Shown here: piece by piece, positions 26,689 to 64,000 of the stretch
Position numbering within the stretch: the stretch's first letter is position 1
How the letters are laid out: the number at the start of each line of letters is the position of its first letter
NCBI RefSeq assembly: GCF_001677475.2
Contig: NZ_CP015229.1
Length of the DNA: 64,000 nt
DNA from: Escherichia coli
GTDB lineage: Bacteria > Pseudomonadota > Gammaproteobacteria > Enterobacterales > Enterobacteriaceae
Strand: one strand, 5' to 3'
Made by a program: the position numbers and the translations under genes
The notes under the pieces: generated by a model
The model's input: the letters and a program-made list of their open reading frames with translations, nothing else
Told to the model about the DNA's origin: nothing
Databases searched by the model: none

Positions 26689-26744
26689 CTTGCCAGAGCG
26701 GCTTCCGGGCGAGTAACGTGCTGTTAACAAATAAAGGAGACGTT

Positions 26745-27134: not shown

Positions 27135-27198
27135 GGCTTGTCATCGCCGCATTTGCCCGGTAACGTGCCGGGCATTGCTACTGTAAAATCGCACCATC

Positions 27199-28494
27199 AT
27201 GACACTCACGCTCAATAGACAACTTCTTACCTCACGCCAGATTCTGGTGGCCTTTAGCGGCGGGCTTGACTCCACCGTTCTGCTGCATCAGTTGGTGCAG
27301 TGGCGGACGGAAAATCCGGGTGTCGCTCTGCGCGCTATTCATGTGCATCACGGTTTAAGTGCCAATGCCGATGCCTGGGTTACGCATTGCGAAAACGTCT
27401 GCCAACAGTGGCAGGTGCCGCTGGTGGTCGAACGCGTACAACTTGCGCAAGAGGGGCTGGGGATTGAGGCCCAGGCGCGGCAGGCGCGTTATCAGGCATT
27501 TGCCCGCACCTTGTTGCCCGGTGAAGTGCTGGTCACCGCGCAACATCTCGACGATCAATGTGAAACTTTTCTGCTGGCGCTAAAACGCGGTAGCGGCCCT
27601 GCCGGGCTTTCGGCTATGGCGGAAGTTTCGGAGTTTGCCGGAACACGGCTTATCCGCCCGTTGCTTGCCCGCACGCGGGGGGAACTGGAGCAGTGGGCAT
27701 TGGCGCATGGTTTACGCTGGATTGAAGACGAAAGTAATCAGGACGACTCATACGATCGTAACTTTCTGCGCCTGCGCGTAGTGCCGTTATTGCAGCAGCG
27801 TTGGCCGCATTTTGCCGAAACAACGGCCCGCAGCGCCGCACTTTGTGCTGAACAAGAGAGCCTGCTGGATGAACTGCTGGCAGATGATTTAGCACACTGT
27901 CAATCGCCGCAGGGGACGCTGCAGATTGCGCCAATGCTGGCGATGAGTGATGCCCGTCGCGCGGCGATTATTCGCCGCTGGCTGGCAGGGCAGAATGCAC
28001 CGATGCCTTCCCGCGACGCGCTGGTGCGGATCTGGAAGGAAGTGGCGCTGGCGCGAGAAGATGCCTCCCCCTGTTTACGCCTAGGCGCGTTTGAAATCCG
28101 CCGCTATCAGTCGCAACTGTGGTGGATTAAATCCGTCACCGGGCAAAGCGAAACCATTGTGCCGTGGCAGACGTGGCTACAACCGCTGGAATTACCGGCG
28201 GGGCTGGGAAGTGTACAGCTTACTGCGGGAGGCGATATTCGCCCTCCGCGTGCAGACGAAGCGATCAGCGTGCGTTTCAAAGCGCCAGGATTGCTGCATA
28301 TTGTCGGGCGCAACGGCGGACGTAAGCTGAAGAAAATCTGGCAAGAGTTAGGCGTTCCGCCGTGGCTACGTGACACCACGCCACTGCTGTTTTATGGCGA
28401 AACGCTGATTGCGGCGGCAGGGGTATTTGTGACGCAAGAAGGTGTGGCAGAAGATGAGAATGGCGTAAGTTTTGTCTGGCAGAGAAACGCTTAG
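27199..28494 (+). CDS. tilS: tRNA(Ile)-lysidine synthetase
   Basis: 431-aa [35 protein letters not shown] (SGGxDS PP-loop motif). Confidence 0.95.
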
Positions 28495-28509
28495 TTAAGT
28501 AAAAGCCGG

Positions 28510-28543
28510 ATATGACGCATCAAACGTCGCATCCGGCGAAAGT
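28510..28543. repeat. REP-like imperfect palindrome between convergent tilS and rof (likely bidirectional terminator)
   Basis: gccggatatgacgcatcaaacgtcgcatccggc, outer gccggat/atccggc arms. Confidence 0.4.
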
Positions 28544-28546
28544 CAA

Positions 28547-28807
28547 TCAGGACTCGCTCACCACCACCGTACCGATTTCCGGGTGGCTAAAGCTGGTAAT
28601 TTTATCCAGACGCAGCTCGCGGGTTGCACCAGCGGCTTCGACGACCAGATATTCCACATTTTTGCGGGAGACTAAATCACTGGCTTTTGCCTGCAATTTT
28701 TCGCCATCTTTCAGCTCAAGTGTCAGCATTAAATGATGCTGGCAGGCGAGCTCAAGATTATCGTAATCATCACAATTGATTGGTTGATACGTATCATTCA
28801 TTGACAT
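28547..28807 (-). CDS. rof: Rho-binding antiterminator Rof (YaeO)
   Basis: 86-aa [49 protein letters not shown]...; true start may be the third codon (MNDTYQ). Confidence 0.85.
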
Positions 28808-29012
28808 AATCGCTCACCAGTAAGTTTGCCGCAGCGTATGCTGCTTTTTCCCTGACAGCCTCAGAAAGGGCGTCGTCGGCAGCCATTTCATTCAGCACTT
28901 TCAAAACGCAGCCCAGCGCGTCCGGAACGTATCCTAAGTCTCCGCTGGCGATTTCCGCGTACCGCTTGCGTATTAACTCACAATATTTTTCCACATGCCC
29001 TCCTGTCAGCAC
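28794..29012 (-). CDS. yaeP: UPF0253 small protein YaeP
   Basis: 72-aa ORF; likely true start at internal Met giving [47 protein letters not shown]...; 3' end overlaps rof start. Confidence 0.8.
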
Positions 29013-29159
29013 TCTGACTTAACCGTGGATGCAAGTCTAAGCCTACGAAGATAAACTCTGTTTCGCAAGGTGACTATACCACACTCATTTCTGCAATATC
29101 AGCGCCGCAACTGCACGTATTCCGTTACAATGGCCTCCTGATTCGAAAGGAGTTTTCTT

Positions 29160-29705
29160 ATGGCGCTTAAAGCGACAATTTATAAAGCGACGGTTAATGT
29201 GGCCGATCTCGACCGCAACCAGTTTCTCGATGCCTCTCTGACGCTGGCGCGCCATCCTTCAGAAACCCAGGAGCGCATGATGCTGCGCTTGCTGGCATGG
29301 CTAAAATATGCCGATGAACGTCTGCAATTTACCCGTGGTTTGTGTGCCGATGATGAGCCGGAAGCGTGGCTGCGTAACGATCATTTGGGCATTGATTTGT
29401 GGATTGAGCTGGGGCTGCCGGATGAGCGACGAATTAAGAAAGCCTGCACCCAGGCCGCAGAAGTGGCACTGTTTACCTATAATAGTCGGGCGGCGCAAAT
29501 CTGGTGGCAGCAAAATCAGAGCAAATGTGCGCAGTTTGCCAATCTTTCCGTCTGGTATCTGGACGACGAGCAGCTGGCGAAAGTGAGCGCCTTTGCCGAT
29601 CGTACCATGACGCTGCAGGCAACGATTCAGGATGGTGTTATCTGGTTATCGGATGATAAGAATAATCTGGAAGTGAACTTAACCGCCTGGCAACAACCTT
29701 CATGA
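29160..29705 (+). CDS. yaeQ: YaeQ family protein
   Basis: 181-aa [50 protein letters not shown]... Confidence 0.9.
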
Positions 29706-30124
29706 TTGTGATTTCCCGACATGTTGCTATTCCCGATGGTGAGCTTGAGATCACCGCCATTCGTGCGCAGGGCGCGGGCGGGCAGCATGTTAATAAGACC
29801 TCAACGGCTATTCATCTGCGTTTTGACATTCGGGCGTCCAGCCTGCCAGAGTATTACAAAGAGCGTCTGCTCGCCGCCAGCCATCATTTGATCAGCAGTG
29901 ATGGCGTGATTGTCATTAAGGCACAGGAATACCGCAATCAGGAACTGAACCGCGAAGCGGCGCTGGCCCGGCTGGTGGCAGTGATTAAAGATTTAACAAC
30001 AGAACAAAAAGCCCGACGACCCACTCGCCCCACCCGTGCATCGAAAGAGCGCAGGCTGGCATCGAAAGCACAAAAATCAAGCGTGAAGGCGATGCGCGGC
30101 AAAGTGCGCAGCGGTCGGGAATAA
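29702..30124 (+). CDS. arfB: Peptidyl-tRNA hydrolase ArfB (YaeJ), ribosome rescue factor
   Basis: 140-aa ORF with GGQ motif ([19 protein letters not shown]) and basic C-terminal tail; 4-nt overlap with yaeQ. Confidence 0.9.
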
Positions 30125-30137
30125 AAAGAAGGAATGG

Positions 30138-30848
30138 ATGGTGAAAAAAGCGATAGTGACAGCGATGGCTGTAATCAGCCTCTTTACTCTGATGGGTTGT
30201 AATAATCGGGCCGAAGTCGATACGCTTTCTCCGGCGCAGGCTGCCGAACTGAAACCGATGCCGCAAAGTTGGCGCGGCGTGCTGCCGTGTGCCGATTGCG
30301 AAGGAATCGAAACCTCTCTGTTCCTCGAAAAAGACGGAACCTGGGTGATGAATGAGCGTTATCTCGGTGCTCGTGAAGAACCTTCCTCCTTCGCTTCCTA
30401 CGGTACATGGGCGCGAACCGCTGACAAGCTGGTATTAACCGACAGCAAAGGTGAAAAGTCATATTATCGGGCGAAAGGAGATGCGCTGGAGATGCTCGAT
30501 CGTGAAGGTAATCCGATTGAATCGCAGTTCAACTATACGCTGGAACCGGCACAATCCAGTTTACCCATGACGCCGATGACCCTGCGGGGCATGTATTTTT
30601 ATATGGCTGATGCGGCGACCTTCACTGATTGCGCGACCGGAAAACGTTTCATGGTAGCGAATAACGCAGAGCTGGAGCGTAGCTACCTGGCTGCGCGCGG
30701 TCATAGTGAAAAACCGATGTTACTGTCAGTAGAAGGTCACTTTACGCTTGAGGCTAATCCGGATACCGGTGCGCCGACTAAAGTATTGGCACCCGATACG
30801 GCAGGGAAATTTTACCCAAACCAGGATTGCAGTAGTTTGGGGCAGTAA
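30138..30848 (+). CDS. nlpE: Outer-membrane lipoprotein NlpE (CutF), Cpx pathway sensor
   Basis: 236-aa ORF MVKKAIVTAMAVISLFTLMGCNNRAEVD (lipobox LMGC), CxxC motif PCADCEG. Confidence 0.9.
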   Translation: MVKKAIVTAMAVISLFTLMGCNNRAEVDTLSPAQAAELKPMPQSWRGVLPCADCEGIETSLFLEKDGTWVMNERYLGAREEPSSFASYGTWARTADKLVLTDSKGEKSYYRAKGDALEMLDREGNPIESQFNYTLEPAQSSLPMTPMTLRGMYFYMADAATFTDCATGKRFMVANNAELERSYLAARGHSEKPMLLSVEGHFTLEANPDTGAPTKVLAPDTAGKFYPNQDCSSLGQ

Positions 30849-30850
30849 TT

Positions 30851-30876
30851 GAAAGCCGGAGCATTCTCCGGCTTTC
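30851..30876. terminator. Bidirectional terminator hairpin between nlpE and yaeF
   Basis: gaaagccggag-cattc-tccggctttc perfect inverted repeat. Confidence 0.5.
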
Positions 30877-30877
30877 A

Positions 30878-31711
30878 TCACTGAGTCAGCCCAACAAAGC
30901 GACCCGCCTTGATATAAATCCCTGGCTTCAGGTGCCCAACATACTGTAACTGCGTTTCTGGCTTAAACGCAGAGACATCGCCAGTACGCATATGCATCAG
31001 ATCGGCAGGGCTAATCCAGCCCGATTGCGCCAGCGTAAGCGGATGCCCGGCTTTGGCAAATGCATCCGTGACAAATTCCGAACAAAACCACGACTTTTTG
31101 TCTCCTTCGCCCACACTGCTTAACTGCGCTTTCGCCAGGCCGCTGACGCACTGTTGGCGAAAATCCTCGGAGAACGGATTCAGTGAGCACATCTGGCGAG
31201 TCACCATAAATGGAATAAATTCGACAATGCCGCGATAGTTATAACCGCTATCTTTGATTTTATTGGCAAACGCGGTGATATCTGTGGCTTGTTGCGGGGT
31301 AAGATCCGGAACTCGTAAGACGAAAAGCTTATCACTATGCTTCATCGCTTTTTTAAGGGAAACAATCTGGACACCATCCCCTGTCGCTTCTGCAACGTTA
31401 TTATCACCCAGATAGATTGCAACGTGACTCACAGAGGAAGTGTTGAAGACGCGGATTCCAAATGAGGTTACCCCAAGGCTTGAGGAGAACAGCAAATCGC
31501 CGGGTTTGAGATCAGGTACCGTTATTTCTTTTATTGATTGTTCGGTGAAAGAGCTTTGATGCTGGAATTTGACAGCCCATGTTTTTGCCTCGACATCTAC
31601 CGCTGTGGCAGAGGAGTCTGGCTGGCTGATATCAACGGTACACGCCGAAAGTAAAAGAAAGCTGGGGAGAAGCAGGCGGTAGTACGCCTTTGGTTTATCC
31701 ATTTTATACAA
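30878..31711 (-). CDS. yaeF: Probable lipoprotein peptidase YaeF (NlpC/P60-like)
   Basis: 277-aa ORF; likely start 3 codons in at MDKPKAYYRLLLPSFLLLSACTVD (lipobox LSAC). Confidence 0.85.
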   Translation of the reverse strand: MYKMDKPKAYYRLLLPSFLLLSACTVDISQPDSSATAVDVEAKTWAVKFQHQSSFTEQSIKEITVPDLKPGDLLFSSSLGVTSFGIRVFNTSSVSHVAIYLGDNNVAEATGDGVQIVSLKKAMKHSDKLFVLRVPDLTPQQATDITAFANKIKDSGYNYRGIVEFIPFMVTRQMCSLNPFSEDFRQQCVSGLAKAQLSSVGEGDKKSWFCSEFVTDAFAKAGHPLTLAQSGWISPADLMHMRTGDVSAFKPETQLQYVGHLKPGIYIKAGRFVGLTQ

Positions 31712-51841: not shown

Positions 51842-51918
51842 AACACAACGCGGAGCGGTAGTTCAGTCGGTTAGAATACCTGCCTGTCACGCAGGGGGTC
51901 GCGGGTTCGAGTCCCGTC
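51842..51918 (+). tRNA. aspV: tRNA-Asp (anticodon GTC)
   Basis: Identical 77-nt sequence to aspU; located after dnaQ as in K-12. Confidence 0.95.
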
Positions 51919-51925
51919 CGTTCCG

Positions 51926-51966
51926 CCAATATTCAGAAAGCCCGAATCAGTAATGATTCGGGCTTT
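51926..51966 (+). terminator. aspV terminator
   Basis: gaaagcccgaatc-agtaat-gattcgggctttc followed by gtcgtttt. Confidence 0.65.
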
Positions 51967-52015
51967 CGTCGTTTTGGTGAAGCGAGAATTTTTCACTCCG
52001 CAAGTAAAACGAATA

Positions 52016-52055
52016 TGATTTAAAAAATGGCCAGATAATATAAATTCTGGCCACT
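52016..52055 (-). terminator. Probable terminator of the minus-strand T6SS operon (after tssA)
   Basis: On the minus strand: tggccag-aatttatatta-tctggcca followed by ttttttaaatc. Confidence 0.5.
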
Positions 52056-52059
52056 TCTG

Positions 52060-53106
52060 TTACTCCAGCGCATCCCATTTTTCCAGCAGTTCTACTGGAA
52101 TTTCATTTATTACCTCCGAGAAGCGTTTTCCGACCAGGCGTTCTGCCTGGCGCAGCAAAGGAATGGTCGGGCTGCTCGGTTCGCTGTGCTCAAACCAGCG
52201 ACGGATGACACGCAGGCGTTCCAGCGCGTCGTTCCGGTCGCGGATCTGCCGGGGTTCTGCGCCGGACATCGGTGATATTTCCTCCGCGATATGCACCGGT
52301 AGCGCAATCTGCTCTGATGATATCTCTTCAGTATGAACGATGGTGGTGCTCTCCGGCTGTTCAGCCACTGGTTGTGGCAGGATCTCCGGCGTGGTGGTCC
52401 GTATCGCTCCCGGCAACAGGGCCAGCAATTGTGTCAGACGGGATAGGTTCGGTGCCTGGTCATTCAGCGTTTCACGCGCATGGCGTTGCAGCCGCTCAGT
52501 GGTCTCTGCGGCCTGGCGAAAGGCATCCAGCGGCAGTGTGCCGCGCGCCTCCAGGTCGGCCAGTTGCTGGCGTACCGATTCTGGTGCCAGCGCATCCGCC
52601 GGGCGTGATGCAGACAGCGAACGCTCCACATCCCGTACCTGAAGGCGTATGGCAGCATTGTTTGACAGTGTAATGCCACGAATATCCGCTATTACGCCTT
52701 CATGGTCCAGCAACGCCGCCAGGGCGTTACTACGTGCCACTGCCGCCTCTTCGGCGGTGATATCTTCAGTCGCGAGCAGTTGAGGATGGATGGCGTTCGG
52801 GTACGTGGCGCACAACGTTTCCAGCAGCGCGAGCGCCTCCGCCAGTCCCCTGGCACCGGCCTGCTGGATACGGCAGCGCAGCAGGACAACCAGAATGCGG
52901 ATATCTTTGCTGCGCGTCAGCAGGCGGCAGGCATCCCGCTCAAGCTCCGCCCAGTTAATGGTTTCCGGCGTACTGACAAAATCGCCGTATTGCGCTTCTT
53001 CACGCGGTGCGGCGCGCGTGAACAGTAGCAGGTATTCCGGATCGTACTCCAGATCCGGGCCGCAGGGGCATTCTGCCGAAATTGGGTCAGACAGGGATGT
53101 ATCCAT
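52060..53106 (-). CDS. tssA: T6SS protein TssA (ImpA N-terminal domain family)
   Basis: 348-aa ORF MDTSLSDPISAECPCGPDLEYDPEYLLLFTRAAPREEAQYGDFVSTPETINWAELERDACRLLTRSKDIRILVVLL, the ImpA_N signature pattern. Confidence 0.8.
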   Translation of the reverse strand: MDTSLSDPISAECPCGPDLEYDPEYLLLFTRAAPREEAQYGDFVSTPETINWAELERDACRLLTRSKDIRILVVLLRCRIQQAGARGLAEALALLETLCATYPNAIHPQLLATEDITAEEAAVARSNALAALLDHEGVIADIRGITLSNNAAIRLQVRDVERSLSASRPADALAPESVRQQLADLEARGTLPLDAFRQAAETTERLQRHARETLNDQAPNLSRLTQLLALLPGAIRTTTPEILPQPVAEQPESTTIVHTEEISSEQIALPVHIAEEISPMSGAEPRQIRDRNDALERLRVIRRWFEHSEPSSPTIPLLRQAERLVGKRFSEVINEIPVELLEKWDALE

Positions 53107-53116
53107 TAAATTATCC

Positions 53117-54112
53117 TCAGTGCGCCAGGTAGTGTTCTGGTTCGAAAATCATGCCCGTCACCGGGTTTTCGTGCATGGCTTTACCCGCCCATGCGGTCCA
53201 GCCCAGTTGGTACGAACCACCGGTAACAGCCGGAGGGGCGGCGTGGGGCTTTAGCTGTAGCTCAATTTCCCAGCAGTATTCAAAACCGCTAAAGGAGCGG
53301 ACCAGTTCTGTCAGGACTGGCAGGTTATTGCCGCCAGGCAGAAAACGTCGGTAATCCTCCAGCGTCAGCGGGCCGATAACCAGCCGGAACTTATACTGCA
53401 TGTCCGGCACGGCCTGGCCGATGAGTGCACCGTTGCCAATAACGGAAGAGGGGGCTGGCATCCCCAGCCGGGTGATCTCATCGTCCGCCACGGCTATCCA
53501 GTGCAGGACATACTCCTGTATCCGGAAAGGTACACCGAAATAGTGCGCCAGCGTGGTGGCCAGACCGTCCGGATTGCGGGACTCACGCACCAGATGGGCC
53601 GATGCCGCCAGGCGAGCGTGATCCTGCAACGGGCTGTCGGCGCTCTCCCGCAAATCCTGCCCGCTGAGGCTGGCGATATAAAAGGCAAAACGGTCATGTT
53701 GCGGTTTATCCAGACCGCCCCCAGCGGACTGGGCGCTGCGCCATGCCTGGTAAAACTGCGTCAGCCAGCGGTGATGAAAAAGATCAGAAAAACGGGTTAG
53801 CGTCGGGTCTCTTCGGCTTTCAGTCCGGTTGTGCGCCAGTTCGGTGTAGTGCAGCGGCAGTGGACCGTTCGGCCCCCACAGCCCGAGACTGTACAAACTG
53901 ATATGCAGCCGCTCTTCCTGCCAGCTCACACTGGCGATTTCCCGTGGCGCAAAGGTCAGCGCGGGAGTTTGTCCGAGGCGAAATTTTTCCATCCGTGGTT
54001 GCCAGGTGTTGCCTGCCGGAACAGTACACAACTGCACATCCACGCGGCGCATCAGGTTCAGAAAACCGTAACGCCAGGGGGTTTCCTGCGCCTGAGTGAA
54101 ATCGTCGCTCAT
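53117..54112 (-). CDS. tssG: T6SS baseplate subunit TssG
   Basis: 331-aa ORF MSDDFTQAQETPWRYGFLNLMRRVDVQL..., immediately downstream of and 4-nt overlapping tssF. Confidence 0.8.
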   Translation of the reverse strand: MSDDFTQAQETPWRYGFLNLMRRVDVQLCTVPAGNTWQPRMEKFRLGQTPALTFAPREIASVSWQEERLHISLYSLGLWGPNGPLPLHYTELAHNRTESRRDPTLTRFSDLFHHRWLTQFYQAWRSAQSAGGGLDKPQHDRFAFYIASLSGQDLRESADSPLQDHARLAASAHLVRESRNPDGLATTLAHYFGVPFRIQEYVLHWIAVADDEITRLGMPAPSSVIGNGALIGQAVPDMQYKFRLVIGPLTLEDYRRFLPGGNNLPVLTELVRSFSGFEYCWEIELQLKPHAAPPAVTGGSYQLGWTAWAGKAMHENPVTGMIFEPEHYLAH

Positions 54113-55992
54113 ACGCTTCCCCGCTGTCCCGCCCTGGCAGGCCAGGTCATAATTTTGCCGCGCTGCATGCTGTGCAGCGTCATCTGCGAGAAGGTATTAA
54201 TGGAAACATGACGGGCGATATAGTGCTCCAACACCAGACCGAACAGATACGGACTGATACCGGAGAACCCCTCCTCATCCACGGTCAGTTCACAACTGAC
54301 GCCGCGCCCATAGACCAGCAGCCCGGAACCGGGCAGACGGCGGGTGACCGGGGTGGTGTTGCAGCCAATCAGGCTGCGCACCTGGCGCGACTGCGGACTG
54401 TCATGCGCCGGAATAAACAGGTTAAGCAGATCGCGCAGCGCCTGACCACCGGTACGGTGATCCAGATCGGCCAGCGGCAGATAGTTAAAGGATAACTGGC
54501 GGATCAACCGCCAGGCCATTTCACGTTCAGCCAGCGGAGGCTGCGGCGGACGCGGCGGACGGATAAGCCCCACGCCCGCCACCGGGATGGCCGCATCCAC
54601 GGTCAGATCGTCCCGTCCATTGCGGGCAATAAGACAGGGCAGATCGCGGTTGGTGACCATAGCCGTGATGGTGATATGGCGCAGATTTTCCGGGTATGGC
54701 GCTTCATACTGGTCAACCAGCGACAGGAACACTTCTGATCCTGTATAGGAGGTGCGGGTGCCATAGCGGCGGGCATTTTCCGACAACCGGCGCGGCTCCC
54801 GGCGCAGGGAAAAATAACGTCCGTGATTGCCTTCATCATTATTGCGGGTGTGGTAGAGCGGGCGAAAGGCCATCTTCCGTGTGGTGTCAGTTTCCAGCCC
54901 TTCCACTTCCTGGACCGAGAACACCTCATAATCCAGCGGATGGGTTCTGTCCACCACCAGATGCTGTTCCGTCGTGCTGTGCGTGACATCGATCCGGGCG
55001 GCGACTCGGGGAAACAGGTTGATAACCGGGGTACAGAACAGACTGAACTGTGCCGCGTTTGTCTGGTGGATCAGCCAGTCCGGCGGCAGGCGGTTCAGCA
55101 GGATAACAATCTCCGCCACTCCGCCTTCAATTTTCTGTAACCCGGCAGACAGGCCTGTCGGGGTGAAAAAAAAGAAGCGTTCCGGACAGGTAAAATATTC
55201 ATGTAGCAGGTTATGGCCGTGAAACACATTCCACGCCAGCGGCAACAGTCCCTGATCCGGATCCAGGCCTTCGTACATAACGGGCTGTTTCAGATTCACA
55301 TCCAGTGCGCCGTCAAAATGCCCCGGAATGCCAGCCAGGCTCGCGATGGCGCTGGTATGCAGTAGTTCGAACAGGTGTGAGGCCGTGCGCTCCTCGCCGC
55401 AGAGATAAAATGGTAGCTTGTTCAGCCCTGCAAGCTGACTGAACGTCAGTTCACCAAAGGTGCGCAGGGTAATACGCAGCGCACCAGCGACGTGAATGTT
55501 GGCTGGCAGGTAGCGGTGCAGGGCAGGCATATCCGGCGGCGCGGCGGTCAGGCGCACCTCTTCGATGGCAAGCGGCCACAGCGTCACATTCTGGCTGCTA
55601 CGAAACTGGCAGGCAGTACTTTCGCCTTCCGGAATGGCGGAAAAAAAGGCCGTGTTGCGCGGGACGGTGAATCCCTTCGCCAGATCGCCTTCTTCCGGAT
55701 CGGGATGAAGCTGCGCCACGCTCATTGAGGGCGTGGGTGTGACGTAATTGGGGCTGACCACTTCCAGCAGGCGCTGGGTGAAACGGGGGAATTCAGCGTC
55801 AATTTTTAGCTGCGTGCGGGCGGTCAGGAAGCTGAAGGCCTCGACCATTCGCTCCACATACGGATCGGCAATATCCGTTCCCTGCATACCCAGTCGGGCG
55901 GCGACTTTAGGATGACGGGCGGCAAATTCGGCTCCCGTTTCCCGCAGATAGCTCAGTTCGCGGTTGTAGTATTCCAGTAGCCGTGGATCCAT
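54109..55992 (-). CDS. tssF: T6SS baseplate subunit TssF
   Basis: 627-aa ORF with the characteristic TssF N-terminus MDPRLLEYYNRELSYLRETGAEFAARHPKVAARLGM. Confidence 0.88.
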   Translation of the reverse strand: MDPRLLEYYNRELSYLRETGAEFAARHPKVAARLGMQGTDIADPYVERMVEAFSFLTARTQLKIDAEFPRFTQRLLEVVSPNYVTPTPSMSVAQLHPDPEEGDLAKGFTVPRNTAFFSAIPEGESTACQFRSSQNVTLWPLAIEEVRLTAAPPDMPALHRYLPANIHVAGALRITLRTFGELTFSQLAGLNKLPFYLCGEERTASHLFELLHTSAIASLAGIPGHFDGALDVNLKQPVMYEGLDPDQGLLPLAWNVFHGHNLLHEYFTCPERFFFFTPTGLSAGLQKIEGGVAEIVILLNRLPPDWLIHQTNAAQFSLFCTPVINLFPRVAARIDVTHSTTEQHLVVDRTHPLDYEVFSVQEVEGLETDTTRKMAFRPLYHTRNNDEGNHGRYFSLRREPRRLSENARRYGTRTSYTGSEVFLSLVDQYEAPYPENLRHITITAMVTNRDLPCLIARNGRDDLTVDAAIPVAGVGLIRPPRPPQPPLAEREMAWRLIRQLSFNYLPLADLDHRTGGQALRDLLNLFIPAHDSPQSRQVRSLIGCNTTPVTRRLPGSGLLVYGRGVSCELTVDEEGFSGISPYLFGLVLEHYIARHVSINTFSQMTLHSMQRGKIMTWPARAGQRGSV

Positions 55993-56007
55993 CGGTTTCT
56001 CTCTGAA

Positions 56008-56502
56008 TTAAAAAAACGTAATGCGGCTCTGTTCCATATCCAGCGCGCTGCGTACCCGGAATGCCATCGGGTAGGGCTGCGTGAGGATCTCGCCGCGAAT
56101 TTCAAACTGTAATGTGTTATGGCCGCTCTGGTGGCGCTCATCCTGAAGTGGGATGATTTGCAGGGGGGACGCTTTCAGCCGGGGTTCAAACCGGATGATG
56201 GTACGCAAAATGGCCCTGTGAATATCGTCCCACTTGTGTTCATACAGAAAGCTGCCCGCCAGTGGCGGCAGGCCGTAGTTCAGTACGGACGCTGCCGCGT
56301 GCGGATAACGTGCAGCATCAATATCATCTTCATGGCTGACGGTGTTGAGCAGAAATGACAAATCCCGGCGAATGATCTCCTTAAGCTGAACCGGGCTGAC
56401 GCTGATATCGTGGTCGCGTTTCTGGTTTGGGGCATCATCACACAGGCGGTCAAACAGCGTGGGCAGCAGGTGATTGCCCGGACGCTGGCGGGAAGCGCTC
56501 AC
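56008..56502 (-). CDS. tssE: T6SS baseplate protein TssE (gp25-like)
   Basis: 164-aa ORF LLPTLFDRLCDDAP...VQLKEIIRRDLSFLLNT...YGLPPLAG, typical TssE pattern. Confidence 0.8.
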   Translation of the reverse strand: MSASRQRPGNHLLPTLFDRLCDDAPNQKRDHDISVSPVQLKEIIRRDLSFLLNTVSHEDDIDAARYPHAAASVLNYGLPPLAGSFLYEHKWDDIHRAILRTIIRFEPRLKASPLQIIPLQDERHQSGHNTLQFEIRGEILTQPYPMAFRVRSALDMEQSRITFF

Positions 56503-57329
56503 GCGTCGCTTCCTTCAGCGGTGTTAAAGGTACAGGTGGACAAATCCAGCAGGCTGATATCGCCGTGACCGGTGAGCCACACCCTCTGACCCAGCGCCTG
56601 TACCAGAGTCTCTCCCGGCCCGTCCTGCCAGACCGTTTTCCGGCACAGACGCAGGGAGTCGGCAGCCTTTTCAGAGCCGCTGTAGCGGGAAAACAGCCAG
56701 GCACTGTGTGTGTCGCCATTATTCAGTGTGACGTTGACGGGTTTCCAGATCAAATCGGTCAGATGCGCAGGCCGCGGCGATTTTAGCGAACAGATTTGTG
56801 AAAACGGCAACCAGATATATACTCCGCCCGCGATGAGTTCGAGTACCGGACCGGTACGGGAGTCGCTGTCGCTAATCCAGTCAAATGCGCCGCCATTCCA
56901 CTGTCCTGCAGTATCTGTTATGGCCTCAAGTGCGCGGCTGCGGTGGGCGTCAGCTTCCTGCGCTTCACCACGGGCGTTACAGGCGAGGGCGGTCAGCAGA
57001 TCCTCCATCCAGGCGGGCGGCGGGAGAATAAAATCGGGCCGCTGTTCTCCCTGAAAGCAGGCGTGGCGGTATATCTCACAGCGGATCAGCTCGCCAAATA
57101 CCTGCGCTTCGCGGGTATAATTTGCGTCCATCCGGGCGCATAGCTGGATCTGTTGCAGTGCCCGCGACCAGTCGCCTGCCACGCACAATAACTGAAACAG
57201 GCTGTGGCGGCGGGAGGCCTGCGCCGGGGGCATCCTGACCTGCTGCTCTGCCATCTGAATGCCCTCCGCCACGGAATAATCCCGCAGCAGCGCCGACAGG
57301 GTAGCCGGTAGCTCGTTATTGTTTGTCAT
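56499..57329 (-). CDS. tagJ: T6SS accessory protein, TagJ/ImpE-like (tentative)
   Basis: 276-aa ORF in operon between fha-like gene and tssE; size and overall pattern resemble ImpE-family proteins; assignment by recollection, not alignment. Confidence 0.5.
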   Translation of the reverse strand: MTNNNELPATLSALLRDYSVAEGIQMAEQQVRMPPAQASRRHSLFQLLCVAGDWSRALQQIQLCARMDANYTREAQVFGELIRCEIYRHACFQGEQRPDFILPPPAWMEDLLTALACNARGEAQEADAHRSRALEAITDTAGQWNGGAFDWISDSDSRTGPVLELIAGGVYIWLPFSQICSLKSPRPAHLTDLIWKPVNVTLNNGDTHSAWLFSRYSGSEKAADSLRLCRKTVWQDGPGETLVQALGQRVWLTGHGDISLLDLSTCTFNTAEGSDA

Positions 57330-58230
57330 GAGATATCTCTCCGTGTTGTGCCGGGTTTATCCGATAATGGCTGTCAATGCCAATGATGCGATGCTCTTTG
57401 CGTGTCAGGTCGGGTAGAACGGTGTTATGCGCTGTTTCCGGTGCGCATTCCGGGGATAGCAGGTGCAGGATATCTGGGGGCGTCTTTTCGGCAGGCCAGG
57501 CGGTTTCCCCTTCGCCGGTGGCGTCCAGGACATCGAGAATAGCGTCAATGCTTAACCCGCCAGTGACCATATCCTGCAATGTCTCGGCTTCAGTGACCAG
57601 ATCACGCAATGAATCCAGATCCTGTGAGGAGGGCTCTTCGTTAAAGGGAAAAGGATCAGCATGGCGATGAAGATCTTGTTCAGGAGATAACAACGCCTCG
57701 CGGTATTCCTGATAAAGTCGAGTCAGGGCATTTTCTTTTTTAGCATCTTCTCCAGTGGAGGAGGCTCCATGAACAGGAATGATATCGAATGGATTTTGTG
57801 ATGTCAGATGCTGCTGCCTGAACCAATCCAGATCCAGATATTCGGTTATTGTTTCCGACATGGTGGCAGTCTGCGATGTCGTTTTTACTGCGCTCAGGTC
57901 CGGAGATGATGGATTGCCGTGCACAAGGCACCATGAAGATAACCCCCATTCTATCAGGTCGCCTTCATTCAGACGCATACGGTGATGAGGTTCCACAATC
58001 TGGTCGTTTACCGTACAGCAATATTCGGTAGACTGATTGATAATCCACCATGCTTCTTCGTGGCGGGTCAGACTGAGGGCAATCTTTACATCATCATTCA
58101 CCTCAAAAACAGGAATCCAGGGTGAGGTAACGGTGAAGATAATTTGGGTTCCTTCAGTCGCGTAAATTGTGTTATCGGCGATCCCGTGCGCCTGTATTTT
58201 TTGGAGTCCCCACGTAATATTTGGTTTCAT
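57316..58230 (-). CDS. T6SS-associated protein with N-terminal FHA-like domain (TagH/Fha-like, tentative)
   Basis: 304-aa ORF; first gene of the minus-strand operon; N-terminal roughly 100 aa end in ...TVNDQIVEPHHRMRLNEGDLIEWG, resembling the C-terminal strand pattern of FHA domains; acidic Ser/Thr-rich C-terminal half. Confidence 0.45.
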   Translation of the reverse strand: MKPNITWGLQKIQAHGIADNTIYATEGTQIIFTVTSPWIPVFEVNDDVKIALSLTRHEEAWWIINQSTEYCCTVNDQIVEPHHRMRLNEGDLIEWGLSSWCLVHGNPSSPDLSAVKTTSQTATMSETITEYLDLDWFRQQHLTSQNPFDIIPVHGASSTGEDAKKENALTRLYQEYREALLSPEQDLHRHADPFPFNEEPSSQDLDSLRDLVTEAETLQDMVTGGLSIDAILDVLDATGEGETAWPAEKTPPDILHLLSPECAPETAHNTVLPDLTRKEHRIIGIDSHYRINPAQHGEISHDKQ

Positions 58231-58562
58231 TGTGTATCACTGTGTAGAATGTTTCTTTCAAAAGAATAAGTTTTCTAAATTTTTAGATAAGCAATGCTGA
58301 TTAATTTACTTTATCAATATAAGTTTTCGCGGAAATATATAGTGGCGATTTTCAATTTAATATATTCATGGTATGTATGAAATTGGCTTGCTCTATTGAA
58401 TATCACCATGAAAAAGATACTACCTGCTATATTACATTGTGTTCTGTGATATGCATCATTGTTTCATTCGGCCTTTTTGATAATTCTATTAATTAGAAGT
58501 TTTAATCGATACAGTTATGTTTATGTATCATTTATATGTTCTTACATCATTAGGTGTAACAG
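58231..58562. promoter_or_regulatory. AT-rich divergent promoter/control region between the two T6SS operons
   Basis: 332-nt non-coding region, visibly AT-rich with multiple A/T tracts, between divergently transcribed fha-like gene and clpV. Confidence 0.5.
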
Positions 58563-61196
58563 ATGGACACTCCTGTTTCGCGCAGTGCACTGTATGGAAA
58601 GCTAACCAAATCTTTGTTTAGATCTTTGGAATCTGCGACGACGTTCTGTAAATTACGCGCTAATCCTTATGTCGAACTGACGCATTGGTTGCATCAGTTA
58701 ATACAACAACCAGAGAATGACATTCACAATGTGCTTCGACATTATCAAATAACATCTGCTGATGTTGAGAAGGCGTTAATTCAGCAATTGAATATATTGC
58801 CTGCCGGAGCGAGTGTAATTAACGATTTTTCCCATCATATCGATCTTTCTGTTGAAAAAGCCTGGATGTTGGCAAGTATCCGCTTTGGCGATCAAAAAAT
58901 TCGTAGTGGATGGTTATTACTTGCCTGGTTAACCACGCCAGAATTGTGTCGGGTGTTAAAAAATATTTGTGCGCCATTGGCAGAGCTGCCGGTAGATGAA
59001 CTATTAGATATTCTTCCGTCTTTAATCACTTCATCTCCTGAATTAACAGAAATGCCTTATGACTGCTCGGATTTAAATTCTGCAGTACCGGGGGAAGCTA
59101 GCCAGGTCTTTGCCGGCGAATCAACCGGAAGCAAATCCGCGCTGGCGAAATACTGCCAGGACATGACTGCGCTGGCCCGTGAAGGCAATATCGATCCGGT
59201 CACCGGTCGCGAACACGAGATCCGTACTATGACGGATATTCTGCTGCGCCGTCGCCAGAACAACCCGCTACTGACCGGCGAAGCGGGAGTCGGGAAAACG
59301 GCAGTGGTGGAAGGATTCGCGCTGGCGATTGCCGGGGGGGAAGTACCGCCTTCACTGCGTAACGTGCGGTTGCTGTCACTGGATGTTGGAGCGCTGCTGG
59401 CTGGGGCGTCCATGAAGGGTGAATTTGAATCCCGCCTGAAAGCGTTGCTAGAAGAGGCCGCGCGCTCGCCGCAGCCGGTAATCCTTTTTGTTGATGAAGT
59501 TCACACGCTGGTGGGCGCTGGTGGTACATCCGGTACGGGGGATGCTGCCAACCTGCTGAAACCGGCGCTGGCGCGTGGCACCCTGCGCACCATCGGCGCA
59601 ACCACCTGGAGCGAGTACAAACGCCATATCGAAAAGGATCCGGCGCTGACTCGGCGTTTTCAGGTATTGCAGGTTGCTGAGCCGGAAGAGGTTGCGGCTG
59701 TTGAGATGGTACGCGGGTTAGTCACCACGCTTGAAAAACACCATGACGTGCTGATCCTTGATGAGGCCGTGCGCGCCGCCGTACAGCTTTCTCACCGTTA
59801 CATTCCGGCCCGGCAACTACCGGATAAGGCCATCAGCCTGCTGGATACGGCGGCGGCCCGTGTAGCGCTGTCGCTGCATACCCCGCCTGCGAGAGTCCAG
59901 TATCTGCGCCAGCAGCTCAACGCTGCCGAACTGGAGCAGGTGTTGTTATTAAAGCAGGAAAAAATGGGTATCCGCTCGGAGCGGGGCGATGTACTGACGG
60001 CGCGGATTATATCGCTTAATGCCGATCTTTCTGACACCGAAGCGCGGTGGCAGCAGGAACTGGAGTTGGTTCGCAGTTTACAGGAGCAACGCGGCGCAGC
60101 GCCTGGCGAGCGCGACGAAATCACTCTACAACAGGCAGAAACGGCATTAAGAGGCTGGCAGGGTGAAAACCCCGTCGTGTACCCGGAAGTCAGTGCAACC
60201 GTGGTGGCAGAGATTGTCTCCGACTGGACCGGTATTCCCGCCGGACGGATGGTGAAAGATGAAGCCAGTCAGATACTGGAATTGCCCACCCGTTTGGCGC
60301 AGCGTGTTACCGGGCAGATGGATGCGTTGGCGCAGATTGGCGAGCGTATCCAGACCGCGCGGGCGGGTTTAGGTGACCCGCGTAAGCCTGTGGGTGTCTT
60401 TTTGCTGGCCGGGCCGTCCGGAGTAGGCAAGACTGAGACCGCGCTGGCACTGGTAGAAGCAATCTATGGCGGTGAACAGAATCTGATCACCATCAACATG
60501 AGCGAGTATCAGGAGTCTCACACAGTCTCCACTCTGAAAGGCGCGCCGCCCGGCTACGTCGGTTATGGCGAAGGCGGCGTGTTGACGGAAGCGGTACGCC
60601 GCCATCCCTGGAGCGTGGTATTGCTGGATGAAATTGAAAAAGCCCATCACGACGTCCACGAGCTGTTCTTCCAGGTGTTTGATAAGGGGGCGATGGAAGA
60701 TGGCGAAGGTGTCCACATCGATTTCAAAAATACCACGCTGTTGTTGACGACTAACGCGGGGGCGGAACTTATCAGCCAGCTCTGTGAGGATCCGGCGCTG
60801 ATGCCCGATTCGGCAGGGTTAAAAGAGGCGTTAATGCCGGAGTTACGTAAACACTTCCCGGCGGCTTTCCTGGGGCGTGTGACGGTTATTCCTTATTTAC
60901 CGCTGGATGAGACCGCGCGTGGTGTTATTGCCCGCCTGCATCTTGGCAGATTGATGGCTCGGATGGCGGAGCAGCATGGCGTTTCACTGGTGTATGGCGA
61001 TGAACTGATTACGCATATTGTGTCGCGCTGCCCGATGCACGAGACCGGCGCTCGTTTGCTCATCGGCTATATCGAACAACATATCCTCCCACAACTGTCC
61101 CGTTATTGGTTGCAGGCGATGACAGAGAAAACGGCCATCACGCAAATCCGCATTCGTGTTGATGAGGATGAACAGATTATTTTTGAAACGGATTAA
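58563..61196 (+). CDS. clpV: T6SS AAA+ ATPase ClpV (TssH)
   Basis: 877-aa ORF with two AAA+ modules: Walker A GEAGVGKTAV and GPSGVGKTETA, Clp N-domain-like N-terminus. Confidence 0.92.
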   Translation: MDTPVSRSALYGKLTKSLFRSLESATTFCKLRANPYVELTHWLHQLIQQPENDIHNVLRHYQITSADVEKALIQQLNILPAGASVINDFSHHIDLSVEKAWMLASIRFGDQKIRSGWLLLAWLTTPELCRVLKNICAPLAELPVDELLDILPSLITSSPELTEMPYDCSDLNSAVPGEASQVFAGESTGSKSALAKYCQDMTALAREGNIDPVTGREHEIRTMTDILLRRRQNNPLLTGEAGVGKTAVVEGFALAIAGGEVPPSLRNVRLLSLDVGALLAGASMKGEFESRLKALLEEAARSPQPVILFVDEVHTLVGAGGTSGTGDAANLLKPALARGTLRTIGATTWSEYKRHIEKDPALTRRFQVLQVAEPEEVAAVEMVRGLVTTLEKHHDVLILDEAVRAAVQLSHRYIPARQLPDKAISLLDTAAARVALSLHTPPARVQYLRQQLNAAELEQVLLLKQEKMGIRSERGDVLTARIISLNADLSDTEARWQQELELVRSLQEQRGAAPGERDEITLQQAETALRGWQGENPVVYPEVSATVVAEIVSDWTGIPAGRMVKDEASQILELPTRLAQRVTGQMDALAQIGERIQTARAGLGDPRKPVGVFLLAGPSGVGKTETALALVEAIYGGEQNLITINMSEYQESHTVSTLKGAPPGYVGYGEGGVLTEAVRRHPWSVVLLDEIEKAHHDVHELFFQVFDKGAMEDGEGVHIDFKNTTLLLTTNAGAELISQLCEDPALMPDSAGLKEALMPELRKHFPAAFLGRVTVIPYLPLDETARGVIARLHLGRLMARMAEQHGVSLVYGDELITHIVSRCPMHETGARLLIGYIEQHILPQLSRYWLQAMTEKTAITQIRIRVDEDEQIIFETD

Positions 61197-61386
61197 TGGA
61201 GCATCCTTATGGCAAAAGAATTAAGTGGCGCACTGTGGTTCAGTCGCTTTCCTGGAAGTTCTTCCACTAATGATTTGCAGGGGACTTTTCGTGCATCGGT
61301 AGATAATTTTTTGCGCGCGCATTGGTAATGCGCGTGCAAGGGTCAGTATCTCTGCAACATATCGCCCTCCCGCCAGAGCATATCTC

Positions 61387-61773
61387 ATGCACTGGTCATG
61401 GTTGATTGCTCATGAAATCGTTCAGGCAAAAAACGTCCCGGCGATGGAGGGGGTGGATATTGAGTGGGTTCACCCGACTGAGCAAGCCTCGCTTGAAGCG
61501 GCGCAGGCTATGGTTACGGCCTATGGTATTAATAATCTGAATGTCGCGCCTGCACTGAGCTCCAACCATACACGCGGTACTGCGATAGATATGAATATCA
61601 GTTGGAGCGGAACATTAACAATTGCGGGGAGCAATGGTCAGAATGTTGCAATTAATACACTACCTCGAACCGGAATGAATGCCCAGCTTCAGGCGGTAGG
61701 TCTGGGTTACGGCGTCAGAAAATTTGTTGGCGGCAATACAGATATACCTCACTGGTCAATTGATGGACATTAA
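61387..61773 (+). CDS. Candidate T6SS effector: small zinc metallopeptidase of the VanY/peptidase M15 (LAS) type, predicted peptidoglycan peptidase
   Basis: 128-aa ORF, no signal peptide, no Cys; exact VanY-type motif S59-N-H61-T-R-G64-T-A66-I-D68 (SxHxxGxAxD) at nt 61561-61590 and C-terminal His in IPHWSIDGH; located between clpV and tssB. Confidence 0.5.
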   Translation: MHWSWLIAHEIVQAKNVPAMEGVDIEWVHPTEQASLEAAQAMVTAYGINNLNVAPALSSNHTRGTAIDMNISWSGTLTIAGSNGQNVAINTLPRTGMNAQLQAVGLGYGVRKFVGGNTDIPHWSIDGH

Positions 61774-61775
61774 GT

Positions 61776-62066
61776 ATGACATTTCGTTATCCGATGTTGT
61801 TGACATTCCTGTTAATGATGTTCGCTTTCTGTGTTCAGGGGGAACCGCCTTTACCACAGGATGTGCAGCATTTTCTGAGTAATGCGGAAATGTGCCAGCA
61901 TCTTGCTGGTGAATGGGACAGTTCTTTACCAAAGAAGGATAAAAGAGACATCGAAAAGGGGGTTGATACCTGGTGTCCTCCGGCGAAGAAATCACTCCCT
62001 GTGCTGCGGGAAAAGTACAAAGAAAACAAAGAGATTATAAAAATACTCTCTGCGTATGATTTTTAA
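61776..62066 (+). CDS. Candidate periplasmic immunity protein for the upstream peptidase
   Basis: 96-aa ORF starting 2 nt after the peptidase stop; N-terminal Sec-type signal peptide MTFRYPMLLTFLLMMFAFCVQG; two Cys in mature part; Lys/Glu-rich C-terminus. Confidence 0.45.
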   Translation: MTFRYPMLLTFLLMMFAFCVQGEPPLPQDVQHFLSNAEMCQHLAGEWDSSLPKKDKRDIEKGVDTWCPPAKKSLPVLREKYKENKEIIKILSAYDF

Positions 62067-62127
62067 ACTGTACCGTCGGGCCACTCTCCAGGTGGTCGTC
62101 GGCTGACTGATAAGGAAATGAAGGATT

Positions 62128-62673
62128 ATGGCTATCAACAACAGCGCGCAGAAGTTTATTGCCCGCAACCGCGCGCCCCGCGTGCAGATTGAGTATGACG
62201 TTGAGATTTACGGCTCCGAGAAAAAAATCGAACTGCCGTTTGTCATGGCGGTGCTGGCCGATCTGGCTGGTAAACCACGCGAAGAGCTGCCACCGGTCAC
62301 CGATCGTAAATTCCTTGATATTGATATCGATAACTTCAACGAGCGGATGAAAGCCATTGCGCCGCGCGTGGCGTTTGCTGTCCCCAATACGCTGACGGGC
62401 GAAGGGCAGTTAATGGTCGATATCACGCTGGAGAATATGGACGATTTTTCGCCTGCGCAGATTGCCCGTAAGGTGGATGCCCTGAACCAGCTGCTGGAAG
62501 CGCGTACTCAGCTTGCCAACCTACAAACGTATATGGATGGTAAAGCGGGAGCAGAAAATCTTATCAACAAACTATTACAAGACCCTACGTTACTGAAAGC
62601 TCTGGCTAGTGCGCCAAAACCTGTCGCTCAACAGGAAAGTGTCTTATCAGGTGAAACGGGAACAGCAGACTAA
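62128..62673 (+). CDS. tssB: T6SS contractile sheath small subunit TssB (VipA)
   Basis: 181-aa ORF MAINNSAQKFIARNRAPRVQIEYDVEIYGSEKKIELPFVMAVLADLAGKP..., classic VipA pattern. Confidence 0.9.
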   Translation: MAINNSAQKFIARNRAPRVQIEYDVEIYGSEKKIELPFVMAVLADLAGKPREELPPVTDRKFLDIDIDNFNERMKAIAPRVAFAVPNTLTGEGQLMVDITLENMDDFSPAQIARKVDALNQLLEARTQLANLQTYMDGKAGAENLINKLLQDPTLLKALASAPKPVAQQESVLSGETGTAD

Positions 62674-62697
62674 CTGCGATTTTATTAAGGAACTTCC

Positions 62698-64000
62698 ATG
62701 GTAAACGATACTCTTCTGGCGACTGGCGAACTCTCTGCTGCGCAAACCACTGCCTATCAGGACACTGAATTTGATTCGCTCTTGGATAAAGCCTTCCGTC
62801 CCAAGACACCTCAGGCAGCAAAGGCTGTTGAGGCAGCAGTTCAGACGCTGGCCCAACAGGCTTTGACAAATACCGTCACCGTCAGTGACGACGCTTATAA
62901 AAGTATTGCTGCGATTATTGAGCAGATCGATTTCAAATTAACTGAGCAGATCAAACTAATCCTGAGTCATCCGGAATTTCAGAAACTGGAGTCCTCCTGG
63001 CGTGGGATGGAACATTTGGTTTACAACACTGAAACCGATGAAAAATTAAAAATCCGTTTTATGAATCTTTCAAAGGATGAATTGCGGAAAAATATGAAGC
63101 GTTACAAAGGGATCGCCTGGGATCAAAGCCCCATGTTCAAAAAGCTTTATGAAGCTGAATATGGACAGTTAGGCGGAGAACCTTACGGTTGTATCATTGC
63201 GGATTATTATTTTGATCACACGCCACCGGATGTAGATCTGCTCGGCTCCATTGCCAAAGTGGCAGCCTCAGCCCATGCGCCGTTTATTGCTGGGGCCTCT
63301 CCGTCAGTGTTGCAGATGGACTCCTGGCAGGAACTGGCTAACCCGCGTGATCTGACCAAAATTGTGACCCAAAACCTCGAATACGCACCGTGGAACTCGC
63401 TGCGAAAAAGTGAGGATTCTCGCTACATTGGCCTGACGATGCCACGTTTTCTCTCCCGTTTGCCTTATGGTGCGAAAACAAACCCTGTCGATGAGTTTGA
63501 TTTTGAAGAAGATGCGGATGGCGCAGATCACAGCAAATATGTCTGGAGCAATGCCGCCTATGCAATGGGTGTAAATATCAACCGCTCTTTCAAACATTAC
63601 GGTTGGTGTACGTTGATCCGTGGTGTTGAATCTGGTGGCGCGGTGGAAAATCTGCCCTGTCATACCTTCCCGACCGATGACGGCGGCGTGGATATGAAAT
63701 GCCCGACAGAAATTGCCATCTCTGACCGTCGTGAAGCTGAACTGGCGAAAAATGGTTTTATCCCACTTATCCACCGCAAAAACTCTGATTACGCCGCCTT
63801 TATTGGCGCGCAGTCTCTACAAAAACCGCAGGAGTATTACGATCCGGACGCTACGGCCAACGCCAATCTCTCTGTTCGTTTGCCATATCTTTTCGCCTGT
63901 TCACGGTTTGCGCACTTCCTCAAATGTATCGTGCGCGACAAGATCGGCTCGTTCAAAGAGCGTGAAGATATGCAGCGCTGGCTCAATGAGTGGATCATGA
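62698..64000 (+). CDS. tssC: T6SS contractile sheath large subunit TssC (VipB), 5' partial, continues past window end
   Basis: ATG at 62698 with SD-like aagg upstream; translation MVNDTLLATGELSAAQTTAYQDTEFDSLLDKAFRPKTPQAAKAVE...; no stop in window so absent from ORF track. Confidence 0.9.
   Translation, partial: MVNDTLLATGELSAAQTTAYQDTEFDSLLDKAFRPKTPQAAKAVEAAVQTLAQQALTNTVTVSDDAYKSIAAIIEQIDFKLTEQIKLILSHPEFQKLESSWRGMEHLVYNTETDEKLKIRFMNLSKDELRKNMKRYKGIAWDQSPMFKKLYEAEYGQLGGEPYGCIIADYYFDHTPPDVDLLGSIAKVAASAHAPFIAGASPSVLQMDSWQELANPRDLTKIVTQNLEYAPWNSLRKSEDSRYIGLTMPRFLSRLPYGAKTNPVDEFDFEEDADGADHSKYVWSNAAYAMGVNINRSFKHYGWCTLIRGVESGGAVENLPCHTFPTDDGGVDMKCPTEIAISDRREAELAKNGFIPLIHRKNSDYAAFIGAQSLQKPQEYYDPDATANANLSVRLPYLFACSRFAHFLKCIVRDKIGSFKEREDMQRWLNEWIM

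Follow-up and report, generated by a model that had tools for sequence, protein, structure and literature searches.

In an analysis of 100 T6SS gene clusters by Bernal et al. (2021; PMC7896307), clusters with long TssA proteins (TssA-L; groups 1 and 2) usually also had TagA, whereas those with short TssA proteins (TssA-S; groups 3–5) were without TagA and often had proteins of ~30 kDa, which were TagB in group 4B but TagJ in groups 3 and 5. The phylogenetic group 3 includes the H1-T6SS of Pseudomonas aeruginosa and the SPI-6 T6SS of Salmonella, in which a TssA-S is found with TagJ and no TagA (PMC7896307). TagJ1 of P. aeruginosa associates with itself, binds TssA1 and forms static foci, and TagB and TagJ have been proposed to act from the baseplate in stabilising the sheath while it polymerises (PMC7896307). 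The TssA-S proteins are 340–380 aa in length (~40 kDa) and consist of an Nt1 domain, a linker and a C-terminal domain (CTD) (PMC11106082). The Nt1 domain binds the cognate TssBC sheath and sets the specificity of the system, the C-terminus forms a ring, and a loop and a hairpin specific to TssA-S contribute to sheath binding (Fecht et al., 2024). The ring formed by the CTD of Burkholderia cenocepacia TssA-S is a 32-mer with a lumen of 100 Å (PMC11106082), and ring stoichiometry differs among the characterised TssA proteins. At the membrane, TssA1 of P. aeruginosa appears earlier than the sheath; it marks where initiation takes place and increases the initiation rate. [quoted passage not shown]

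The window, i.e., the whole stretch of 64,000 nucleotides of Escherichia coli DNA that was analysed, contains part of a T6SS gene cluster in which a single gene encodes an ImpA_N protein. The features found around this gene are the following.

51852..51928, plus strand: tRNA-Asp gene (aspV), the island boundary (ARAGORN; RefSeq annotation).
52023..52058, minus strand: terminator-like hairpin after tssA (sequence reading, RNA fold).
52060..53106, minus strand: tssA, coding sequence of a short-form TssA (TssA-S) (ORF list; ImpA_N; TIGR03363; RefSeq copy 99.8% identical).
53117..54112, minus strand: tssG, 331 aa, baseplate (Pfam T6SS_TssG, E = 3e-93; TIGR03347 above cutoff).
54109..55992, minus strand: tssF, 627 aa, baseplate (Pfam T6SS_TssF, E = 8e-221; TIGR03359 above cutoff).
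56008..56502, minus strand: tssE, 164 aa, gp25-like baseplate wedge (Pfam GPW_gp25, E = 4.9e-20; TIGR03357 above cutoff).
56499..57329, minus strand: tagJ, ImpE family, 276 aa, ~30 kDa (Pfam ImpE, PF07024, E = 7e-41; 4UQX, E = 5.9e-49).
57316..58230, minus strand: tagK, 304 aa, the gene that opens the operon, with a weak FHA match (NF033418 T6SS_TagK, 553 bits vs. a cutoff of 200).
58563..61196, plus strand: tssH/clpV, 877 aa, divergent, sheath-recycling ATPase (TIGR03345, 1215 bits vs. a cutoff of 885).
62128..62673, plus strand: tssB, 181 aa, small sheath subunit (Pfam T6SS_VipA, E = 6e-58; TIGR03358 above cutoff).
From ~62698 (open frame 62689-63999), plus strand: tssC, running off the end of the window (annotation of the reference island described below).

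The six genes tagK, tagJ, tssE, tssF, tssG and tssA are co-directional and tightly packed and form a minus-strand operon, of which tssA is the last gene and begins 10 bp past the stop codon of tssG. The terminator-like hairpin lies 7 bases past the tssA stop codon and has a 13-bp stem, a 10-nt loop and a run of U; its fold has an energy of −17.4 kcal/mol (z = −6.06), and none of 200 shuffled sequences folded as well. This hairpin, which was missed by a pattern scan for terminators because its loop exceeds 8 nt and was revealed by direct reading and folding, is the probable end of the operon. Two small genes lie between tssH and tssB, and in the window the gene that follows tssH carries a frameshift. 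At the edge of the island dnaQ is found just upstream of aspV, which is a chromosomal integration hot-spot. The window ends inside tssC, with ~27 kb of the island unseen, and the part beyond tssC was read from the complete island (L001) of E. coli AR_0077, which is 99.6–99.8% identical. None of the six operon genes differs in length from its counterpart in this annotated reference. In its RefSeq annotation, the island continues with tae4/tai4, hcp, tssJ, tssK, tssL, a tlde1-domain gene and tssM, which are followed by a second Tae4/Tai pair, a tagF-domain gene, vgrG, a DcrB-related gene and Rhs genes, and it ends at yafV. No PpkA/PppA threonine-phosphorylation genes were found in the annotated L001 island, which does have TagF and the FHA-like TagK.

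The closest described counterpart of this cluster is the T6SS of Salmonella enterica SPI-6, whose TssA (cluster P0031, 351 aa) is 71% identical to the E. coli protein over 100% of its length. The synteny tagK-tagJ-tssE-tssF-tssG-tssA is also the same and adjoins dnaQ/rnhA, the order at the P0031 locus being a 300-aa gene, ImpE, gp25, TssF, TssG, ImpA_N, dnaQ and rnhA. SPI-6 likewise adjoins aspV (PMC2907695). In some Salmonella lineages the TssA copies are 88–89% identical to the E. coli protein (P0004 and P0005). The two systems differ in that the linker sequence of the Salmonella TssA is not that of the E. coli TssA and in that the E. coli island, as judged from the L001 annotation, lacks the saf/tcf fimbrial region found in Salmonella SPI-6. 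In E. coli, the T6SS cluster studied here corresponds to the SPI-6 T6SS of Salmonella, and its site of insertion is aspV. The H1-T6SS of P. aeruginosa, to which the short TssA1 (class C of Schneider et al.) belongs, with the same Nt1-linker-CTD layout and a length in the 340–380 aa range, is also of group 3, has TagJ and shares the tagJ-tssE-tssF-tssG block, but its tssA1 lies beside tssB1, whereas tssA of the E. coli cluster follows tssG. The likeness to TssA1 rests on the published identity table, in which TssA1 and the group-3 TssA-S of S. enterica are 32% identical at 96% coverage and the respective TagJ proteins 36% identical at 89% coverage (PMC7896307).

The tssA ORF starts with ATG and consists of 348 codons and a stop (ORF listing). 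Its boundaries are those of a RefSeq CDS in E. coli AR_0077 with DNA 99.8% identical, the product of which (WP_032170716.1) bears the RefSeq name “ImpA family type VI secretion system protein.” Homologues of the tssA product that are full-length, more than 100 in number, were found in Salmonella, Citrobacter, Enterobacter, Snodgrassella, Cupriavidus, Ralstonia, Paraburkholderia and Burkholderia, with query coverage of 97–100% and lengths of about 343–379 aa. Given these homologues and an ImpA_N match with E = 3.5e-30, tssA is not a chance ORF: the reading frame is real, as are the size of the product and the ImpA_N domain. The 348-aa ORF that the earlier note had placed at 52060-53106 is therefore confirmed by the ORF list, by the RefSeq boundaries and by ImpA_N.

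The sole domain found in TssA by the Pfam scan is ImpA_N (PF06812), which is matched at residues 7–133 over profile positions 2–118 of 119. The earlier note had described the protein as an ImpA N-domain only, which holds for Pfam but not for the protein itself, as the latter also has an extension of Nt1, a linker and a conserved CTD. Its parts are the following.

52396..53106, minus strand: Nt1 domain, residues 1–237 (AF2, Foldseek, profile matches).
52708-53088, minus strand: ImpA_N core of Nt1, residues 7–133 (Pfam).
52243..52395, minus strand: inter-domain linker, residues 238–288, rich in P/E/T/S (AF2 pLDDT and family alignment).
52063..52242, minus strand: C-terminal domain, residues 289–348 (alignment, profile vs. 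PDB, Foldseek, AF2).

The AF2 model of TssA has a mean pLDDT of 75.9. In this model Nt1 is helical (pLDDT mostly 75–95) and has predicted beta-hairpins at residues 38–45 and 146–156, the second of which lies within the TssA-S-specific extension (residues 134–237) beyond the Pfam match. Compared with residues ~38–50 of TssA, the long TssA of EAEC has a gap of 12 residues in the profile alignment, and we infer that the elements at residues 38–45 and 146–156 are the published TssA-S “loop” and hairpin. Residues 239–286 of the linker have pLDDT values below 50 and are predicted to be disordered, and the linker is the sole region that varies in both length and sequence in an alignment of 28 TssA homologues. 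The CTD has three predicted helices (residues 291–308, 314–335 and 338–347) that are modelled with moderate confidence, the mean pLDDT of 10-residue blocks being 53–84. In the 28-sequence alignment the C-terminal ~60 residues are the most conserved part of TssA, and the N-terminal region to about residue 237 is conserved too. The CTD carries an invariant W-F-E-x-x-E-P-S-S-P motif, which together with an invariant P-C-G forms the signature of this TssA subfamily; its invariant residues in the same alignment are R291, A294, R302, W304, F305, E306, E309, P310, S311, S312 and P313, and further L317, L318, E322, G326, R328, P337, L340 and W344.

Both domains are matched best, in structure and in sequence, by TssA-S of B. 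cenocepacia (6HS5; 6H8E/6H8F/6HS6). When the family profile was compared with PDB, the ImpA_N cores of EAEC TssA (6RJU, E = 7.6e-12) and B. cenocepacia TssA-S (6HS5, E = 2.9e-11) were matched, and the CTD was separately matched to the solved B. cenocepacia CTD (6H8E, E = 2.4e-5; 6H8F/6HS6, E = 2.9e-4), a sequence match that spans only ~40 residues. Single-sequence searches of PDB with the CTD gave marginal matches (E ~0.1), and the matches were significant with the family profile and in fold comparison. The motif R..A....R.....F...EP.SP (R-x-x-A...F-x-x-x-E-P-x-S-P) is common to the two CTDs. The identity to the N-domain of B. cenocepacia TssA-S is only ~21%. The one Foldseek match of the AF2 model to PDB with E ≤ 1e-3 was 6HS5, the N-domain of B. 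cenocepacia TssA-S, whose whole ~240 residues were covered (E = 6e-7; TM(target) 0.67; 260 columns). For the CTD, Foldseek found 6H8F_B (probability 1.00; rmsd 1.3 Å over 39 columns; 33% identity) and 6H8E (probability 0.98–0.99). The layout of Nt1, flexible linker and CTD is that described for TssA-S, and by analogy with these homologues the CTD is likely to be the domain of oligomerisation, i.e., of ring formation.

The short class of the protein, which the earlier note had proposed, was upheld by the NCBIfam models. TIGR03363, a TssA model of 353 positions, was matched from end to end (residues 5–336; profile positions 6–338; E = 1.2e-42), whereas the long-form model TIGR03362 with 476 positions was matched at the N-terminus only (residues 5–164; profile positions 5–150), with 66.6 bits vs. 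a cutoff of 230. It should be noted that the TIGR03363 score of 146.9 bits missed the curated equivalog cutoff of 160.85. Because of this score, the enterobacterial/betaproteobacterial subfamily to which the protein belongs is regarded as having diverged from the rest of the short-TssA family and is not filed as a strict TIGR03363 equivalog; its RefSeq names are therefore mixed, i.e., “ImpA family” T6SS protein in some records and TssA in others. The length of 348 aa fits that of TssA-S (340–380 aa) and not that of TssA-L (470–540 aa), and neither Nt2 nor a long-type CTD was found in TssA by Pfam, NCBIfam or the family profile against PDB. The long TssA proteins of EAEC Sci-1 and Vibrio cholerae (6RJU and 6RIU) share the ImpA_N core (E = 7.6e-12 and 5.5e-4), to which the PDB matches of the family profile to long forms are confined; they lack the 12-residue “loop” segment, and their length of 470–540 aa, their Nt2, their different CTD and their pairing with TagA are all absent in the E. 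coli TssA. A long-form architecture within the 348 aa, the finding that would have contradicted the earlier note, was thus sought with Pfam, NCBIfam and the PDB profile, and it is ruled out by the Pfam result, by the N-terminus-only match of TIGR03362 and by the PDB profile matches. In addition to ImpA_N and a fitting length, the protein has the Nt1 extension, the flexible linker and a CTD of the B. cenocepacia type, and its gene lies in a cluster of groups 3–5 without TagA, as seen from the synteny with Salmonella SPI-6 and from the lack of a second ImpA_N ORF. We consider it very probable that tssA encodes the core TssA subunit, of the short class, of a group-3 (i3) T6SS.

The accessory partner expected of such a subunit appears to be encoded in the same operon, four genes from tssA. 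The tagJ product is homologous over its full length to P. aeruginosa TagJ1/HsiE1 (4UQX; E = 5.9e-49; residues 12–269), and its counterpart in L001 is named “T6SS accessory protein TagJ” by RefSeq. It has the ImpE domain, homology to TagJ1 and a mass of ~30 kDa, and its gene is sited between tagK and tssE among core genes. Given that a full-length TagJ homologue is encoded in the same operon and that short TssA proteins of group 3 pair with TagJ, the cognate partner, by analogy with these systems, would be of the TagJ class and inside the window, and no outside partner would be required.

The earlier note had instead suggested that TssA may depend on an additional partner that is not in the window. 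The protein would then be an incomplete, N-domain-only TssA in need of a TagA- or TagB-type partner encoded elsewhere, a reading that draws on the recognition of ImpA_N alone by Pfam, on the ~27 kb of island that lie beyond the end of the window in tssC, and on two hypothetical L001 proteins of ~27 kDa (26208-26942 and 28322-29023) that have no Pfam match. However, a CTD homologous to the ring domain of TssA-S is present, and TagJ, the known partner of group-3 short TssA, is in the window. No second ImpA_N or TagA-like ORF was found in the window or in the complete L001 island when six-frame ORFs of at least 50 aa were searched with the family HMM with filters off, and this HMM is sensitive enough to pick up the long TssA proteins in PDB. 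TagA and TagB are also absent from the RefSeq annotation of the L001 island, and a Pfam scan of ten L001 proteins returned TagF_N, DcrB and Tlde1/YkuD only. The genes for the two ~27-kDa proteins belong to duplicated modules directly upstream of vgrG genes, a position that is typical of effector/adaptor cargo and is unlike the core-gene position of tagB. As judged from L001, the island downstream, where the earlier note had advised looking for tagA/tagB-like genes, contains none that is annotated and no TagA-like ImpA_N ORF detected by the HMM, and we regard dependence on a partner from outside the window as very improbable.

Even less probable is that tssA is a decayed remnant, either a long TssA from which Nt2 and the C-terminal domain have disappeared or a pseudogene within an island in decay. 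Some copies in E. coli do cover only 24–71% of tssA and lie beside VgrG fragments, and the frameshifted gene after tssH could be read in the same way. The family is, however, conserved from end to end at 345–375 aa from Salmonella to Burkholderia (coverage 97–100%), its C-terminus is the most conserved part, and the six operon genes of the window have kept the lengths of the annotated reference. Although TagA proteins carry ImpA_N too, we give hardly any credence to a TagA-like, membrane-associated sheath stopper or clamp in place of a core TssA, given that the protein has no long C-terminal extension but a short helical CTD of the TssA-S type, that its predicted fold and CTD match TssA-S structures specifically, that the groups in which TagA occurs together with long TssA are 1 and 2, not 3, and that tssA is the single ImpA_N ORF of an island with every other core gene, so that the role of TssA is filled by its product.

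As the core TssA-S subunit, the protein may work as proposed for its homologues. By analogy with P. aeruginosa TssA1, B. cenocepacia TssA-S and P. putida TssA1, its CTD would oligomerise into a ring, and the Nt1 domains, held by their flexible linkers, would attach to the sheath of the cognate TssB/TssC. The ring would join the assembly of the membrane complex and baseplate and prime the polymerisation of the tube and sheath. It may also recruit the ~30-kDa TagJ, and the growing sheath would then be stabilised from its baseplate end with no distal TagA clamp; systems with TssA-S and TagJ would fire soon after extension. The genes for these putative partners, i.e., tssB, tssC and tagJ, are present, and the interactions are those known for the P. 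aeruginosa homologues only.

Matches to tssA with at least 80% identity were found in 170 of the 5,426 complete E. coli genomes, 128 of them covering at least 80% of the gene, and each match was a single chromosomal copy. The i3 cluster is thus found in ~2–3% of the complete E. coli genomes. Salmonella, Citrobacter and Enterobacter were reported to have a T6SS organisation other than that of E. coli T6SS1–3 (PMC6730261), and a 2025 survey, in which the E. coli T6SSs were divided into the subclasses i1, i2 and i4b, screened for those only (PMC12282107). Databases do annotate the i3-type island, but the usual i1/i2/i4b typing of E. coli does not include it. It is a tentative and rather doubtful suggestion that tssA may mark an uncounted SPI-6-like i3 T6SS that is always found at aspV, with a probable exchange between E. 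coli and Salmonella suggested by the 88–89%-identical Salmonella copies described above, and that this TssA subfamily, given its score under the TIGR03363 cutoff and its invariant signature, may differ from P. aeruginosa TssA1 in ring stoichiometry or in its use of TagJ.

The short TssA itself is already known, being a routinely annotated core component of T6SSs, and work on homologous systems has characterised its class, its domain layout and its partner. For the family, a TssA in which Pfam recognises ImpA_N only is not to be taken as truncated, since the small ring-forming CTD of short TssA proteins has no Pfam model. For E. coli, the strains with the aspV island carry an i3 (SPI-6-like) T6SS for which the current E. 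coli typing schemes do not screen.

The whole island at tRNA-Asp (aspV), which extends over positions 51852-64000 of the window and 1429-42269 of L001, the complete related island of E. coli AR_0077, is an SPI-6-like T6SS of group 3 (i3). In several E. coli genomes (H35-H40), tssA was reduced to its first 24-71%, and the partial gene directly adjoined fragments of VgrG or 'phage late control D'. These loci are deletion remnants of the same aspV island and resemble the SPI-6 remnants known from some Salmonella serovars (PMC2907695).

We noticed that the TssA homologues of some Salmonella enterica genomes (P0004 and P0005) were 88-89% identical to the E. coli TssA, while the common SPI-6 TssA of Salmonella shared only ~71% identity with it. 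This difference between the TssA sequences suggests that lineages of E. coli and of Salmonella exchanged the island relatively recently at the aspV site that they share.

Three further features of the window were found at the aspV side of the island and directly 3' of tssH:

51936-51967 (+): perfect hairpin with a 14-bp stem, GAAAGCCCGAATCA...TGATTCGGGCTTTC, directly 3' of tRNA-Asp
61209-61773 (+): frameshifted gene directly 3' of tssH, with an extra A at ~61321
61776-62066: second gene 3' of tssH, a 96-aa ORF with a hydrophobic N-terminus

The hairpin, which is followed by GTCGTTTTGG, lies between tRNA-Asp and the first gene of the island and is probably the aspV terminator. ARAGORN also predicted a 'tRNA-His' at 54233-54326 (-), within the tssF coding sequence. 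This prediction is almost certainly a false positive, because its length (94 nt) is atypical, the surrounding coding sequence is strongly supported and RefSeq annotates no such tRNA in AR_0077.

The AR_0077 counterpart of the frameshifted gene is intact, encodes 187 aa and is annotated as a 'peptidoglycan-binding domain-containing protein'. Compared with AR_0077, the window carries a single additional A (GCGCGCATTGG vs. GCGCGCTTGG), which shifts the reading frame and leaves an ORF of only 128 aa (61387-61773). A Pfam scan returned no match for either protein encoded 3' of tssH. The two genes may encode a T6SS effector and its immunity protein; in the window, the putative effector gene may be pseudogenised, or else the extra A may be a sequencing error.

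Beyond the window limits, L001 contains a duplicated module (26208-31644) in which genes for hypothetical proteins of ~240 aa and ~125 aa precede vgrG, the first vgrG copy being truncated. None of the module's four hypothetical proteins had a match in a Pfam scan; possibly, these are cargo or adaptor proteins associated with VgrG that have not been characterised so far.

A search of 5,426 complete E. coli genomes identified the tssA of the island in only 170 (matches of at least 80% identity). Given that recent surveys and reviews of E. coli T6SSs recognise only i1, i2 and i4b (T6SS1-3; PMC12282107, PMC6730261), the i3 subclass seems to have been left out of E. coli T6SS typing schemes.
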